From positions 1 through 64,000 of the IMG/VR virus record IMGVR_UViG_3300028833_006001: 64,000 nt of DNA. One strand, 5' to 3'. Shown one piece after another: positions 28,931 to 60,299 of this stretch (position 1 is its first letter; the number at the start of each line of letters is the position of its first letter). The position numbers and the translations under genes are program-made. Source of the DNA: a virus (lineage: Duplodnaviria > Heunggongvirae > Uroviricota > Caudoviricetes). The notes below the pieces were generated by a model. That model did not search any database. It was not told the DNA's origin and saw only the letters and a program-made list of their open reading frames with translations.

Positions 28931-29977
28931 TTATGATACATACCAAGAAGGTGGATTTTTTTCTAAAGGACATTTTTTAAATATATCCCTTGACCATTTT
29001 AATATTTTTATTTTTTTATTTATATTCCAAGATGATATATCTCCATCAAATTTAGAATTATAAAACATTTTTATCATATTAGTAACATTACTTACATCCC
29101 ATTTTGATATATCTTTATTAAAAATTGAGTTACAAAACATATACTCCATATTAACAACTTTACTTACATCCCAAGACGATATATCACTATTAAAGTTAGA
29201 ATAAGAAAACATATAACTCATATCAATAACATTACTTACATCCCATTTTGATATATCTTTATTAAAAATTGATCTAAAAAACATATAATCCATATCAGTA
29301 ACTTTACTTACATCCCATTTTGATATATCTTTATTAAATTTAGACTGTGTAAACATAAAACTCATATTTTTAACTTTACTTACATCCCAAGAAGATATAT
29401 CTCTATTAAATGATGAATAAATAAACATCTGTGACATATTAATAACATTACTTACATCCCAAGACGATATGTCACTATTAAAGTTAGAATTAGAAAACAT
29501 ATAACTCATATTAGTAACATTACTTACATCCCAAGATGATATATCTCCATTAAATTTAGATTGTGCAAACATAACATGCATATCAGTAACATTACTTACA
29601 TCCCAAGATGATATATCACCATTAAATTCAGAACTAGAAAACATTCTACGCATATTAGTAACATTACTTACATCCCAATCTGATATATCACCATTAAATT
29701 CAGAAGATTCAAACATACTATCCATATTAGTAACATTACTTACATTCCAAGATGATATATTTCCATTGAATTTTGAATTTTTAAATATATCAGTCATATC
29801 AGTAACATTACTTACATCAATATCATTTAAATCAGCCTTATTTCCTCTTTCTTCAATAAGTTTATCTACTAAAGATTTAAGTTCTTCTCTATCTTTAGGA
29901 TGATAATGATATACAGGTTTATTAATATCCTTATTTAAATGTAATTTCTCTATTATATAATTATTTAAATTTTTCAT
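28931..29977 (-). CDS. leader-family protein with DUF285/BspA-type leucine-rich repeats (about 10 repeats of D(I/V)SxWDVSNVTNMxxMF)
   Basis: The true start is probably the internal Met giving MKNLNNYIIEKLHLNKD; the ORF track extends it to 30043. Then come HPKDREELKSLVDKLIEERGNKADLNDIDVSNVTDM and tandem WDVSNVTNM repeats. Confidence 0.7.
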   Translation of the reverse strand: MKNLNNYIIEKLHLNKDINKPVYHYHPKDREELKSLVDKLIEERGNKADLNDIDVSNVTDMTDIFKNSKFNGNISSWNVSNVTNMDSMFESSEFNGDISDWDVSNVTNMRRMFSSSEFNGDISSWDVSNVTDMHVMFAQSKFNGDISSWDVSNVTNMSYMFSNSNFNSDISSWDVSNVINMSQMFIYSSFNRDISSWDVSKVKNMSFMFTQSKFNKDISKWDVSKVTDMDYMFFRSIFNKDISKWDVSNVIDMSYMFSYSNFNSDISSWDVSKVVNMEYMFCNSIFNKDISKWDVSNVTNMIKMFYNSKFDGDISSWNINKKIKILKWSRDIFKKCPLEKNPPSWYVS

Positions 29978-29978
29978 A

Positions 29979-30431
29979 TTATTTAACAAACATAGCGAAT
30001 AAATAAAATCCATTATTATCTGGGTCCCAATATAATATACCATTTTCAGAACCTCTTAATTGTACATTTTTTAATCTATATAAAATTGTTGAACTATAAT
30101 TTTGTTTTATATATTTAATATATTCAGATACTTCTTCTGTTTCTTGTAAATAATTATCTTTAATATCTTCATCAAGATTAGAATTATTTTTTAAATCTTT
30201 TAACTTATCAGTATAATATTTTACATTATTAACATTATTATTTTTTAACCATGTATAAATTTCTCCAATAAATAAATTTCCGCTTGCTAATAAAGTATTA
30301 TCTTTTTTTGTTTTATCAATAAGACCAAACATATATGAAATTTCATTAGATAATTCAATAATATCTTTATTAACTTTAATATCTTTATTAAGATGAAGTT
30401 TTTCTATTATATAATTATTTATTGTTTTCAT
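29979..30431 (-). CDS. leader-family protein (MKTINNYIIEKLHLNKDIK), C-terminal domain unknown
   Basis: Conserved N-terminal leader. The start overlaps the stop of its neighbour. Confidence 0.6.
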   Translation of the reverse strand: MKTINNYIIEKLHLNKDIKVNKDIIELSNEISYMFGLIDKTKKDNTLLASGNLFIGEIYTWLKNNNVNNVKYYTDKLKDLKNNSNLDEDIKDNYLQETEEVSEYIKYIKQNYSSTILYRLKNVQLRGSENGILYWDPDNNGFYLFAMFVK

Positions 30432-30432
30432 T

Positions 30433-30948
30433 TTATTTTAATAAATTTTCAATTTTATCGATTTTATTTTCATCAAAAATAATTTCTTTATGATCTTTAT
30501 TAAATGATATTTGAATTTCTTTTCCTTCAAAATCTTTCCATCCATTAGGAGTAAAACCTAATTTATTAATAAAATCAAATTTTTTATTTTTTTTAATATA
30601 ATCAATTGCATCAATAGATTCATCTTTTGTAAGTATTATTTCAATATTAATGTCATCTATTATTGAATAAAAAAATTTACTTTTATCTTTTTTTGTCATA
30701 TTAATTATTTTATTAGTTACATGATGATTACCAGTAATAAATTTATATTGAATTTCTTTTTCATTAACACTAATAATTTCACAAACATCAAGTCCAATAG
30801 AATTTACTTTATCTTTATTCATAAAACTTTTATTATCCCAATTATAAAGAGATAAAAGTAAACATTTATCTCCTTTATTATATATATTTAAAATAATATC
30901 CTTATTTAAATGTAACTTTTCTATTATATATGCATTTAAATTAATCAT
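30433..30948 (-). CDS. leader-family protein (MINLNAYIIEKLHLNKDI)
   Basis: Conserved leader. 171 aa. Confidence 0.6.
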   Translation of the reverse strand: MINLNAYIIEKLHLNKDIILNIYNKGDKCLLLSLYNWDNKSFMNKDKVNSIGLDVCEIISVNEKEIQYKFITGNHHVTNKIINMTKKDKSKFFYSIIDDINIEIILTKDESIDAIDYIKKNKKFDFINKLGFTPNGWKDFEGKEIQISFNKDHKEIIFDENKIDKIENLLK

Positions 30949-31331
30949 TTTCTATGTCTAAAAACTTTTTTATCAAAATCGAATTTACTTATATAAAATG
31001 AAGGTCTTATTCTAAGTCCATAATTTGTAACAAATATTTCACTAAACCAATCTGATCTACCAAAACCATCATTATAAAATTTATCTTCTAATTGTTTATA
31101 CCATTGTTTATCTCCTATATAAAAATGTACACAAATTTCATTTCTATTATTTAATTTAATATCAAAATCATCTTTTTCTAGATTTGGTACTTTTAAAAGA
31201 AAATCATATACACCATCTAAAGCAGATTTTAATACTTTTTCATTTGCTTCTTGTGAATCAAATGTATCTAAGTTTTTATTGTCTTTATTTAAATGTAATT
31301 TTTCTAATATATATTTTGATAAATTATTCAT
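30945..31331 (-). CDS. leader-family protein (MNNLSKYILEKLHLNKDNK)
   Basis: Conserved leader. 4-nt overlap with the upstream gene. Confidence 0.6.
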   Translation of the reverse strand: MNNLSKYILEKLHLNKDNKNLDTFDSQEANEKVLKSALDGVYDFLLKVPNLEKDDFDIKLNNRNEICVHFYIGDKQWYKQLEDKFYNDGFGRSDWFSEIFVTNYGLRIRPSFYISKFDFDKKVFRHRK

Positions 31332-58432: not shown

Positions 58433-58448
58433 TTTAATATATATAATT

Positions 58449-58682
58449 TTAATACCAACTAATCCATTTAAATCTTTTTATTTTATCTATGTTTTTAAAT
58501 AACATAATTAATCTAAGATCTATTAATTGAAGAAATGTTACAAGAATAACATTTCCTTTAAATAATATTTTAGGTAATGTCTTATTTAAAATTCCTTCTG
58601 ATGCATAATCATATTTAGGAAATTTTTCTAAAACATTAAAATTATCATAATTATTTGTTGAAATATTATTCTTTTTATCCAT
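58449..58682 (-). CDS. small hypothetical protein (77 aa)
   Basis: ORF only. Confidence 0.3.
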   Translation of the reverse strand: MDKKNNISTNNYDNFNVLEKFPKYDYASEGILNKTLPKILFKGNVILVTFLQLIDLRLIMLFKNIDKIKRFKWISWY

Positions 58683-59701
58683 TAAGCAACTTCTTTAAAT
58701 TTTTCTAATTTACTATCAATATCTTTAAATATTAAATCAAGTTTTTCTTTAGTTTTTAAATAATCTTCTCTTTGGAAACCAAATGAAGAACCTTTTGCAT
58801 TAGCTAATTTTAATTTAATATATTCTTTATAAACAAGTAATAAACCATCTTTACCACTATAATAACCTTTACCAGGTTTTACACTTGGATTATATCTTCT
58901 TTGATCTTGTAATAAATCAATTAAATATCCTACTTCATATTCATATTTAGCATATTTCATAGGATCTTTACTCATTTTAGTGGTAATTTCCATAATTTTA
59001 TTTATATACTCAGATACTTTTTCAGCCATACCATCATCAGCATCTTTCTGAGCTTTTACTTTAGCAACATATTGTTTATATCTTTCTTTATTGATTTCTA
59101 ATATTCTTTTATACTCCCATTCTCTTGTTTCTTCATCATTAAAAATATTAAAAGCACCAGATTTATTTATATCTCTTTGTTTTATTTTTTTATCTTCAAC
59201 AAATTTAGTTAGATCAATAAGATAATATTCATTAGTTAAATAATCAAGTGCTTCACCTGGTTTAATATATTTACCACCAGCAATTGTATAATTTGAATTA
59301 AAACTGAAATAACATGGTCCAGACATTAAAGCACCAAGATATTTTATATCAGCATTTTTATCATCATTTAATAAAATAACTAATCCTTTAAAATGATTTG
59401 ATCTATTAGAACATATTGCTCTTACAAGTTTTAATCCTTCTTCATCATCTTTTTTATATTTTGTAAAATCATCATCAGTTATTTTATCCCAACCAATACC
59501 AGATCTTTTACCAAATACAGCTCTAAATGTACTAGTAACATCAGCACTACTATATTTTTCTAATCCTCTTTTTTCATGATTTTTTGTTATTCTATCATTA
59601 AATTGTTTACTTATTTCACGAAGAATTGAAGAACTAAAACTTTCATTAATCATTAGTTCTGCATATAAATTATCATTAATATATTCTAATATTGTTTTCA
59701 T
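58682..59701 (-). CDS. hypothetical protein (339 aa) with short-form leader (MKTILEYINDNL)
   Basis: Leader pattern. Confidence 0.45.
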   Translation of the reverse strand: MKTILEYINDNLYAELMINESFSSSILREISKQFNDRITKNHEKRGLEKYSSADVTSTFRAVFGKRSGIGWDKITDDDFTKYKKDDEEGLKLVRAICSNRSNHFKGLVILLNDDKNADIKYLGALMSGPCYFSFNSNYTIAGGKYIKPGEALDYLTNEYYLIDLTKFVEDKKIKQRDINKSGAFNIFNDEETREWEYKRILEINKERYKQYVAKVKAQKDADDGMAEKVSEYINKIMEITTKMSKDPMKYAKYEYEVGYLIDLLQDQRRYNPSVKPGKGYYSGKDGLLLVYKEYIKLKLANAKGSSFGFQREDYLKTKEKLDLIFKDIDSKLEKFKEVA

Positions 59702-59892
59702 TAACCAAATTTTAATAATCTTTTTATATCACTTTGTCTTATTGATTCATACATTTGTTGTTCATTATAAGTCTCTCCATTTGGAGCCTTTGCTTCTCTA
59801 TTCCATTGAACAGTATTTTGTTCCCAATAATTTTTAGTTGGGTTATTCAATGATTTAGTTATATTATTTAATTTTTCAAAAATATTAATCAT
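59701..59892 (-). CDS. small hypothetical protein (63 aa)
   Basis: ORF only. Confidence 0.3.
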   Translation of the reverse strand: MINIFEKLNNITKSLNNPTKNYWEQNTVQWNREAKAPNGETYNEQQMYESIRQSDIKRLLKFG

Positions 59893-59894
59893 AA

Positions 59895-60299
59895 TTAAAA
59901 TATTTTATATCTAGGATATTGTGGTATAGTCCAATATTTATAATCCATTATATGTTGTTGACCTTTATATGGTCCAATTTTTATTGATTCTATGATACCA
60001 TATTCTTTTAATCCACAGAATAATTCTACTTGCTGTCCTGTTTTTCCTGGCCAAACTAATTCTCTTATTTTATCTTTACTAGCTGTTCCATCAAGACTTT
60101 TTAAACAAATATAAACCGCATACCAAGGTTTATTTTTTTGAACTCCATTTTCTTTTCTTGTTGATTTTCTATTGTTATAGAATTTTTCAGGAAATTTATT
60201 TATATCATCAGCTTCACCAAACCAATAATCTTTTTCAATTACTTTTATATCTTTATTAAGATGAAGCTTTTCAGTTAAAAATATATTAATTGTTTTCAT
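59895..60299 (-). CDS. leader-family protein (MKTINIFLTEKLHLNKDIKV)
   Basis: Conserved leader. Confidence 0.6.
   Translation of the reverse strand: MKTINIFLTEKLHLNKDIKVIEKDYWFGEADDINKFPEKFYNNRKSTRKENGVQKNKPWYAVYICLKSLDGTASKDKIRELVWPGKTGQQVELFCGLKEYGIIESIKIGPYKGQQHIMDYKYWTIPQYPRYKIF

Follow-up and report, generated by a model that had tools for sequence, protein, structure and literature searches.

Capsid-targeting sequences (CTSs) have been known since the 1990s. In the T4 genome record the internal proteins (IPs) IPII and IPIII start with MKTYQEFIAE|A, where the bar marks the cut, actual or predicted, here and below; in the T4 sequences IPI starts with MKTFKEFTSTTTPVSTITE|A, gp24 starts with MAKINELLRE|S and gp23 is cut at LTE|A. 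For IPIII to be packaged its first 10 residues suffice; targeting depends mainly on residues 4 and 7 and processing on residues 8 and 10, and Asp at position 10 blocks processing while targeting is kept (PMC9026906). The gp21-like proteases studied all cleave after Glu, with a lineage-dependent preference at P3 (PMC5694885). T4 has three IPs and the T-even phages together at least 10, encoded in highly variable loci, and the discovery of ip genes by their leader is standard in these phages (PMC12373910). A stretch of 64,000 nucleotides from a Caudoviricetes genome (IMG/VR record IMGVR_UViG_3300028833_006001, positions 1 to 64,000; the window) was analyzed here, in which about 30 proteins encoded within 31 kb, known from their genes alone, share an N-terminal leader. 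This leader is probably a T4-type CTS, greatly expanded in a megaphage related to PAU, Tenacibaculum and Lak phages.

Head-packaged proteins cut after Glu by a gp21-like protease are also known from the phiKZ-like phages SPN3US, phiKZ and 201phi2-1, in which some paralogues have identical N-termini and the propeptide has been taken to act in targeting; the propeptides are mostly longer than 100 residues, with A/S/G-x-E sites, and about eight proteins are processed (PMC5694885). The leaders described here measure 10-19 amino acids (aa) with Ile, Leu or Val at P3 and thus differ from the phiKZ type, which has no single short leader common to dozens of unrelated proteins. The likeness to encapsulins is one of function only, in that a short portable peptide brings cargo of various kinds into a shell of the HK97 fold. 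In encapsulins the cargo peptide usually lies at the C-terminus and is not removed by a protease, and the cargo is not delivered to another cell.

The window has a G+C content of 19-38%, and all open reading frames (ORFs) of at least 60 aa that were taken as genes between 20.3 and 61.2 kb lie on the minus strand. In a six-frame translation of the window the motif E[KR]L[HK]L[ND] was found 20 times, always on the minus strand between 29950 and 60272 and about nine codons past the ATG at the N-terminus of an ORF, and nowhere else. The long leader so defined, with the consensus Mxx(L/I)xxYI(I/L)EKLHLNKD, is carried by 20 minus-strand genes between 28931 and 60299; about 10 further genes in this array carry a short leader, MKx(I/L)xxYIxE followed by a small residue. 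A looser regular expression (M-x-x-[LIFVM]-x-x-[YFHI]-[ILVF]-x(1,2)-E with at least 45 codons after it) matched the window 28 times, on the minus strand in every case and 26 times inside 28931-60299, against a mean of 0.12 and a maximum of 1 in 100 shuffles. When looser variants are included (34205, 34872, 53994 and 58682), about 31 of the 45 minus-strand ORFs in the 31-kb stretch bear a leader. The remaining 15 or so include genes for an amidase, a lysozyme, a deoxynucleoside monophosphate kinase, a head-closure-like protein and proteins of 699 and 1002 aa, and leader-like starts outside the array were found at 12504 and 13751. A first-pass annotation of this DNA had described at least 20 genes with a near-identical long leader, about 10 with a shorter relative of it and roughly 30 co-oriented leader genes in all; these counts and the common strand were reproduced, and the array proved to be interspersed with leaderless genes and not to be the sole location of such starts.

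Among the 19 full long leaders Glu10, Lys11, Leu12 and Leu14 are invariant. Glu10 is encoded by GAA or GAG and Lys11 by AAA or AAG, Leu12 by CTT (11), TTA (6) or CTC (2) and Leu14 by CTT (13) or TTA (6). Such synonymous codons at invariant residues point to selection at the protein level.

For a comparison of positions, 131 distinct leader ORFs (71 long and 60 short) were taken from the window and related loci, and those chosen for Glu at position 10 (68 long and 52 short) were tabulated. Position 4 is Leu, Ile or Phe in 68/68 long leaders and Leu or Ile in 48/52 short ones. Tyr occupies position 7 in 57/68 and 40/52 respectively, and Ile position 8 in 65/68 and 40/52, with Leu or Val otherwise. 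Position 11 is Lys in 68/68 long leaders, and Ser, Ala or Gly in 28 of the 52 short ones. At the level of sequence, the positions conserved in the tabulated leaders (4, 7, 8 and 10) are those to which T4 genetics assigns targeting and processing. The resemblance to the T4 CTS and its (I/L)-x-E motif that had been noted at first pass is borne out in length, 10 residues in both, and at these positions: an N-terminal peptide is common to unrelated proteins (MKTYQEFIAE in T4, MKTIVQYIKE here), with hydrophobic or aromatic residues at 4 and 7, Ile8 and Glu10. A small residue at 11, as in T4, occurs in those 28 of the 52 short leaders. In two thirds of the leaders here an invariant KLHLNKD(I)K is added, with Lys after the Glu, which T4 lacks. 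Identity to T4 is 23% for the capsid protein (gp23) and 26% for the protease (gp21), and persistence of the T4 rule (4, 7, 8, 10) at this distance suggests a signal that is ancient or strongly constrained by the protease-scaffold machinery.

The leader genes were as follows:
28931..29977, minus strand, long-leader gene, 348 aa, MKNLNNYIIEKLHLNKDIN, with a DUF285/BspA-type repeat payload
29979..30431, minus strand, long-leader gene, 150 aa, orphan payload with a weak match to phrog_7673 'internal head protein' (E=0.0063)
30433..30948, minus strand, long-leader gene, 171 aa, orphan payload
30945..31331, minus strand, long-leader gene, 128 aa, orphan payload
31331..31798, minus strand, long-leader gene, 155 aa, orphan payload
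31791..32297, minus strand, long-leader gene, 168 aa, EKLHLDKNIK, orphan payload
32299..32691, minus strand, long-leader gene, 130 aa, orphan payload
32694..33122, minus strand, long-leader gene, 142 aa, orphan payload
34205..34555, minus strand, truncated long leader MKTLLEKLKLDKNIK, 116 aa
34568..34852, minus strand, short-leader gene, 94 aa, MKDIKTYLINE|S
34872..35774, minus strand, short-leader gene, 300 aa, MKTIVEYIHTILE|SG, with a GS..DID motif of the Pol-beta nucleotidyltransferase (NTase) type
35771..37279, minus strand, fusion gene with an internal degenerate short leader ..ISEYIKE|SL, 502 aa
37283..38509, minus strand, short-leader gene, 408 aa, MKRFIQYIQE|SG
38577..39023, minus strand, long-leader gene, 148 aa
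39025..39666, minus strand, short-leader gene, 213 aa, MKSLLQYINE|A, HAD phosphatase with the domain from residue 22
40260..40910, minus strand, long-leader variant MIEIINYINEKLKLDNEH, 216 aa, DUF285 payload
40912..41208, minus strand, short-leader gene, 98 aa, MKNFNEYINE|E
41205..41666, minus strand, long-leader gene, 153 aa
41666..42028, minus strand, long-leader gene, 120 aa
50790..51239, minus strand, long-leader gene, 149 aa
51241..51831, minus strand, long-leader gene, 196 aa
51818..52297, minus strand, long-leader gene, 159 aa
52294..52713, minus strand, short-leader gene, 139 aa, MKTIVQYIKE|S, NDK domain from residue 18
52722..53255, minus strand, long-leader gene, 177 aa, strongly acidic payload
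53248..53991, minus strand, long-leader gene, 247 aa, DUF285 payload
53994..54191, minus strand, loose short leader MKNLKDILTVNE|G, 65 aa
54199..54474, minus strand, short-leader gene, 91 aa, MKDIKNYIVE|F
54477..54713, minus strand, short-leader gene, 78 aa, MKNLKEYLNE|G
57986..58432, minus strand, long-leader gene MKELKTILLEKLHLNKDVS, 148 aa
58682..59701, minus strand, loose short leader MKTILEYINDNLYAE, 339 aa, basic payload
59895..60299, minus strand, long-leader gene MKTINIFLTEKLHLNKDIK, 134 aa
11977..12504, minus strand, short-leader gene outside the array, 175 aa, MKSLIEYIKE|E
12522..13751, minus strand, possible leader of the 9-residue type of phage PAU (below), outside the array, 409 aa, MKKFSQLFE|S

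As in T4, there are genes in the window for a protease of family S77, a capsid protein of the gp23 type and a scaffold, and the leader genes lie among head genes:
60303..61166, minus strand, head-tail adaptor-like gene, opening the transcription unit that contains the first leader genes
42043-43674, minus strand, head-closure-like gene within the array
27924..28586, minus strand, acidic protein of 220 aa between the array and the protease, conserved in relatives
26051..27802, minus strand, prohead protease-scaffold fusion of 583 aa (PF03420, E=8.8e-10; S77, gp21-like, residues 1-190)
24199..25932, minus strand, gp23-like major capsid protein (PF07068, E=3.3e-29)

Past the array the order is a 60-aa gene, the gene for the 220-aa acidic protein, which is possibly a prohead core protein, and then the protease fusion, capsid, tail sheath and tail tube genes. 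The 26% identity of the protease to T4 gp21 extends from the N-terminus through the ELEHP/ELNHP (His) and SSRG (Ser) motifs. Its C-terminal half is acidic, coiled-coil-like, repeat-rich and scaffold-like, and the equivalent protein is labelled 'prohead core scaffolding protein and protease' in the PTm1 record; the fusion protein is presumed to be both the leader-cleaving enzyme and the docking core. A 36-nt tandem repeat of 6.8 copies at 26514-26758 (minus strand) encodes the 12-aa unit VQNWVCEEFAPE about 7-8 times. Repeats of this type occur in 6-9 copies in 9/9 relatives, and a looser form, W-I-x-x-x-F, is present in PTm1. With a V/I-x-E site in every unit, cutting could reduce the scaffold to peptides of 12 residues. 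The capsid propeptide ends in YAAIHEIHE|S, as it does in 7/8 relatives with the capsid gene read, and reads YASVHEIYES in the eighth (L029). The profile matches and this propeptide confirm the first-pass placement of a gp21-like protease and a gp23-like capsid protein with an IHE|S site downstream of the array. A link between NEKLNW in the capsid propeptide and EKLHLN in the leader was dropped as the common stretch is too short. Three exact copies of the promoter-like sequence TTATTTTTAATAAAGTAA were found on the minus strand (61179-61196, 27838-27855 and 26011-26028; 0.27 expected), upstream of the adaptor-like, protease and capsid genes respectively, and this sequence is a candidate late promoter.

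A leader profile searched with HMMER against 1.84 billion cluster representatives gave 400 matches at E<=0.001, and among the 150 matches listed nearly all begin at residue 1. A 40-aa leader profile returned 13 short fragments only from a word-indexed database of 5.8 billion proteins. After the leader was trimmed, 162 leader proteins fell into 101 BLAST payload clusters, 86 of them singletons. Homologues of the DUF285 payloads occur in bare form, with a lipoprotein signal (cellular BspA), with the short leader and with the long leader, the last in the variants ERLHINKD, EKLKINKK, EKLIINKN and EKLVLNKD. More than 100 payload families carry the leader, which is a portable addition to them. The leader itself matches no family in Pfam, NCBIfam or PHROGs, and neither do most payloads. 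Among cellular genomes the leader DNA pattern was found in two metagenome bins only, from goat ileum and a similar source, which hold about 34 more leader genes in 62 kb (35 regular-expression matches, one likely due to chance). Both bins look like phage DNA binned in error and carry no information on the host. The goat ileum bin (JAFRDD01, 'Clostridia bacterium RGIG2387'; L033-L038 and L040) has dense leader arrays on at least six contigs of 27-31% G+C and is probably a mis-binned megaphage genome.

By their capsid proteins the nearest records (33-39% identity) are an uncultured 462-kb phage, PAU, pT24, PTm1, PTm5 and the Lak megaphages. In IMG/VR a scan with the DNA pattern located the long leader on six contigs, the largest of 170 kb, and in each case at the beginning of an ORF. 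With the protease as query, nine loci were obtained at 50-81% identity, one of them on a 410-kb contig, and leader genes lie directly upstream of the protease gene, in the stretch read, at 7/9 of these loci. The leader varies between the related loci:
L021, EKLHLNKD
L027, EKLHLKKG
L023, EKLKISK, with His in place of Tyr7 in the long and the short class alike
L025, EKLN(L/I)S(K/T)
L024 and L026, short leaders only
L028, 14 short leaders in 10 kb

HAD orthologues in L021 and L023 bear the leader type of their own lineage, and lineage-specific leaders of this kind would suit a peptide that co-evolves with a common partner. In the closest relative (capsid protein 93% and sheath 90% identical) the number of genes differs, and most long-leader payloads of the window have no orthologue in its syntenic stretches. 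The array behaves as a hyperplastic accessory locus, and its payload turnover resembles, by analogy, the variable IP loci of T-even phages (PMC12373910).

Sphingomonas phage PAU (JQ362498), the capsid protein of which is 34% identical to that of the window, has a leader family of the same kind. In its first 137 kb at least 16 genes start with MKT(L/I)xxL(Y/F)E followed by Ala or Ser, and 13 of the 16 lie around the portal, protease, scaffold and capsid genes:
gp131-133, gp142-146, gp149, gp150 and gp152-154, with others, PAU leader genes (GenBank JQ362498)

A longer form of the PAU leader reads MKTISKLYEAKLNE|AS. In the record gp142 and gp154 are labelled 'internal capsid protein' and gp152 'scaffolding', and all three are leader-bearing; gp70 has the label 'internal capsid protein' and no leader. 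PAU differs in that its leader has nine residues to the Glu and an extension that ends in a second L-N-E site instead of KLHLNKD, and in that it has fewer members and a separate leader-bearing scaffold gene, in place of the scaffold fused to the protease here. Among the papers searched, none was found to describe the PAU leader family. Notes to gp1, gp9 and gp10 in the record read 'internal capsid vertex protein (mango)', 'capsid decoration protein (banana)' and the like, which implies an unpublished structural and proteomic study of this cultured relative. As PAU has been cultured and carries the same kind of leader family, the proposal is directly testable.

Copies of the leader motif were also found inside proteins, which sets this clade apart from T4. 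In 12 of 162 sequences examined, 16 copies lie between domains; the 427-aa protein P0014 has three, and two of the 12 (from L011 and L034) were confirmed as continuous ORFs in the DNA under the standard code. P3 is aliphatic in 16/16 internal and 68/68 N-terminal copies, and P2 is Thr in 10/16 internal copies and mostly Ile or Leu at N-termini. An aromatic P4 was found in 3/16 internal versus 65/68 N-terminal copies (Fisher p 4e-10) and an aliphatic P7 in 4/16 versus 68/68 (Fisher p 2e-11), p-values that overstate independence as internal and N-terminal copies are phylogenetically related. On these counts the internal copies keep the processing positions and lose the targeting positions as defined by T4 genetics.

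In two proteins a 12-residue insertion separates MKQINKYI from (I/L)xERLHINKD. The gene at 35771-37279 joins a leaderless cytidylyltransferase/NMNAT-like domain to a leader-bearing NTase-like domain, which are two genes in the closest relative, and is a recent fusion made at ..ISEYIKE|SL. In this relative (L021, 3150-4887) the NMNAT-like gene has in turn undergone fusion, to another small domain that bears a leader (..NNNMKSINEYIVNES..). Such fusions would be tolerated because the cassette lets the domains be separated. Together these arrangements suggest that the long leader consists of two modules, a targeting helix and a processing cassette (hydrophobic-x-E plus KLHLNKD). The first-pass remark that conservation continues past the predicted cleavage site is thereby confirmed and made more precise: the cassette behaves as a module of its own and also persists inside multidomain proteins.

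When the payloads of the array were compared by BLASTP without the first 22 aa, similarity was left only among three DUF285 proteins, in the pair 34872/35771 and in one weak pair, so that they are indeed mutually unrelated, as first described, apart from these three sets. Pfam identified DUF285 (PF03382, above the gathering score) in 28931 (E=3.6e-134), 40260 (E=3.5e-38) and 53248 (E=1.8e-90), NDK in 52294 and a HAD hydrolase in 39025, in agreement with the initial assignment of DUF285/BspA, NDK-like and HAD payloads; the other payloads matched no Pfam family. The Pol-beta nucleotidyltransferases of the first-pass annotation did not hold up in the same way, no profile being matched and the G-S-x(n)-D-I-D motif in 34872 and 35771 being their whole basis. 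The NDK domain begins at residue 18 and the HAD domain at residue 22, which marks the leader as an N-terminal addition. An AlphaFold2 (AF2) model of 53248-53991 gave the DUF285 repeat solenoid a predicted local distance difference test score (pLDDT) of 95-99 and residues 1-20 a pLDDT of 61-70. Residues 4-11 are helical in it and 12-23 are coil; the model suggests a leader that forms a detached helix followed by an exposed extended segment.

The tests run (head-gene context, T4 positions, portability, relatives and PAU) all favour, as far as sequence can tell, a T4-type capsid-targeting and propeptide function for the leader, as had been proposed at first pass. Residues 1-10 (M-K-x-L/I-x-x-Y-I-x-E) would form a short amphipathic helix, with the hydrophobic residues 4, 7 and 8 docking the protein on the scaffold core, that is, on the C-terminal half of the protease fusion, during prohead assembly. 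After shell closure the gp21-like serine protease would cut after Glu10 at (I/L/V)-x-E and free the payload in the head, from which it would exit with the DNA at infection. The short class would end at the site, with Ser, Ala or Gly next in about half of the short leaders, in the manner of T4. On the P' side KLHLNKD(I)K would be added in the long class, which with hydrophobic-x-E would make a self-contained processing cassette; placed between fused domains, it would allow several domains to be loaded by one targeting helix and then cut apart. From these sequences we infer that the proteins dock, are packaged, cleaved and injected, and act as effectors or anti-defence factors; fast payload turnover is consistent with injection and action on the host.

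Several observations weigh against this reading. The similarity to the T4 CTS spans about 10 residues, for which no meaningful E-value is possible. The payloads are mostly acidic or neutral and include enzymes and leucine-rich repeat proteins, unlike the small and basic T4 IPs. A regular-expression search of PTm1, pT24, LR756500 and Lak-B5, covering 20 kb to either side of the capsid gene as far as the records extend, revealed no leader family, which could reflect true absence, another consensus or another location. The PAU record gives no basis for its annotations, and the relatedness of the cassette copies bears on the contrast drawn between them. Of the leader operons only the first is preceded by TTATTTTTAATAAAGTAA, and other gaps in the array carry a different motif that is also present elsewhere (TTTTATTTTTATATA, below), so that co-expression with the head genes may not be strict. 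Lys after Glu10 throughout the long class, where the verified T4 sites that were read have Ala or Ser, makes cleavage there uncertain, and the segment could be a binding motif.

That last point leads to an alternative in which the leader targets the prohead and the long class is never cut, EKLHLNKD being an extended scaffold- or shell-binding motif and the proteins either structural parts of an internal body or of the core, or expelled with the scaffold. An invariant Lys at P1' (68/68) would fit such a role, as would the packaging in T4 of proteins with an unprocessable leader (PMC9026906), the 6-9 acidic aromatic scaffold repeats, which could pair with the basic KLHLNKDIK, and the presence of the leader on the PAU scaffold itself. 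The internal copies retain precisely the hydrophobic-x-E that defines gp21-type cleavage, however, diverse and quickly changing payloads are ill-suited to structural parts, and a candidate site with Lys after Glu, KLTE|KVT, is kept in the scaffolds of 6/9 relatives and of the window, so that an uncleaved long class is considered unlikely. The leader might instead be a docking tag for another phage partner such as a chaperone, a decoration or fibre site, tail or baseplate cargo or an intracellular compartment, since sequence does not prove an internal location, the related phage PTm1 is described as having head-fibre-like appendages and several leaderless genes of the array encode lysis- or tail-associated enzymes. 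Against this stand the fit of the 10-residue pattern and its conserved positions to the T4 CTS, the adjacency of leaders to the prohead protease gene in 7/9 relatives, the labelling of PAU leader proteins as internal capsid proteins and scaffold and the weak match of one leader protein to the PHROG 'internal head protein', and a partner outside the prohead is accordingly held to be distinctly improbable.

A function of the leader as nucleic acid, either as a translation-initiation or downstream-box element or as a recombination site for cassette shuffling, is very improbable. Cassettes are gained and lost rapidly in the region, and the hairpin-plus-promoter-like cassettes in its gaps (below) recall the PeSL shuffling elements of T4-like phages (PMC4122927). 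The invariant Leu residues nevertheless use CTT, TTA and CTC, which involves two-base differences, the third positions of the Glu and Lys codons vary, relatives keep the amino-acid pattern while the DNA differs, and the in-frame internal copies are conserved as protein; homologous recombination at leaders may be a side effect. Almost no weight is given to a secretion or lipoprotein signal, which the first-pass annotation had named as a finding that would count against packaging. Cellular DUF285/BspA homologues have lipoprotein signals at the same position, but in the amphipathic leader positions 2, 10, 11, 13, 16, 17 and 19 are charged or polar, hydrophobic residues never run to 8 in a row and a lipobox Cys is lacking; it also looks quite different from MKKIINLLFFIVFSISAFA, the true signal peptide of the lysozyme encoded at 49934.

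Capsid targeting as a kind of system is already known; what is new here is the scale, the phylogenetic distance to T4, the proposed division of the leader in two and the presence of cassettes inside proteins. If the T4-type reading is correct, dozens of proteins would be packaged per genome, versus three in T4, and the leader would serve as a sequence tag for the injected proteome of uncultured gut megaphages, marking at least 400 protein clusters, most without known function, as candidate first-strike effectors or anti-defence factors. A two-part leader whose cassette works inside fusions would also be useful for loading phage heads with multiple cargoes. A bolder version, advanced tentatively and regarded as doubtful, is a two-part code for capsid-borne effector delivery with more than 100 interchangeable payload families. 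MKxLxxYI would load, a cut at hydrophobic-x-E|KLHLNKD in the head would split multi-cargo polyproteins, and every cargo would receive the N-terminus KLHLNKD as a second signal, for example to order its passage out through the tail or to act as an N-terminal-Lys degron limiting the lifetime of the effector in the host.

Some individual payloads and neighbouring ORFs were characterized further. The payload of 52722-53255 has an isoelectric point (pI) of 4.1 and a net charge of -23, the composition expected of a DNA mimic. A homologue search with the payload of 31331-31798 returned only near-identical sequences. Residues 196-255 of the product of 58682-59701 gave weak phmmer matches to histone H2B chains in the PDB (best E=0.077), with no Pfam match even at E<=5 and a single-sequence AF2 model too poor for use (pLDDT 40). 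If true, a histone fold in a capsid-targeted protein would be of note. On the minus strand at 54733-54882, just upstream of the 1002-aa gene, a 49-aa ORF has a pI of 11.2 and a net charge of +13; its product could be a DNA-condensing or internal peptide, or the ORF could be no gene.

The sequence TTTTATTTTTATATA occurs 10 times in the window at one mismatch or fewer, versus 0.85 expected:
57938-57952, 49872-49886, 45538-45552, 39691-39705 and 279-293, minus strand, copies of TTTTATTTTTATATA
3520-3534, plus strand, copy of TTTTATTTTTATATA
other positions, the remaining copies

Most copies come after a G+C-containing hairpin in a gap between genes, in the array and elsewhere. These hairpins with TTTTATTTTTATATA look like terminator-promoter cassettes, reminiscent of the PeSL elements (PMC4122927). 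Outside the array a DNA polymerase fragment-like gene was noted at 296-1549 (minus strand), a DNA methyltransferase gene at 1616-2557 (minus strand) and a ResIII/DEAD helicase gene at 15375-17189 (minus strand).

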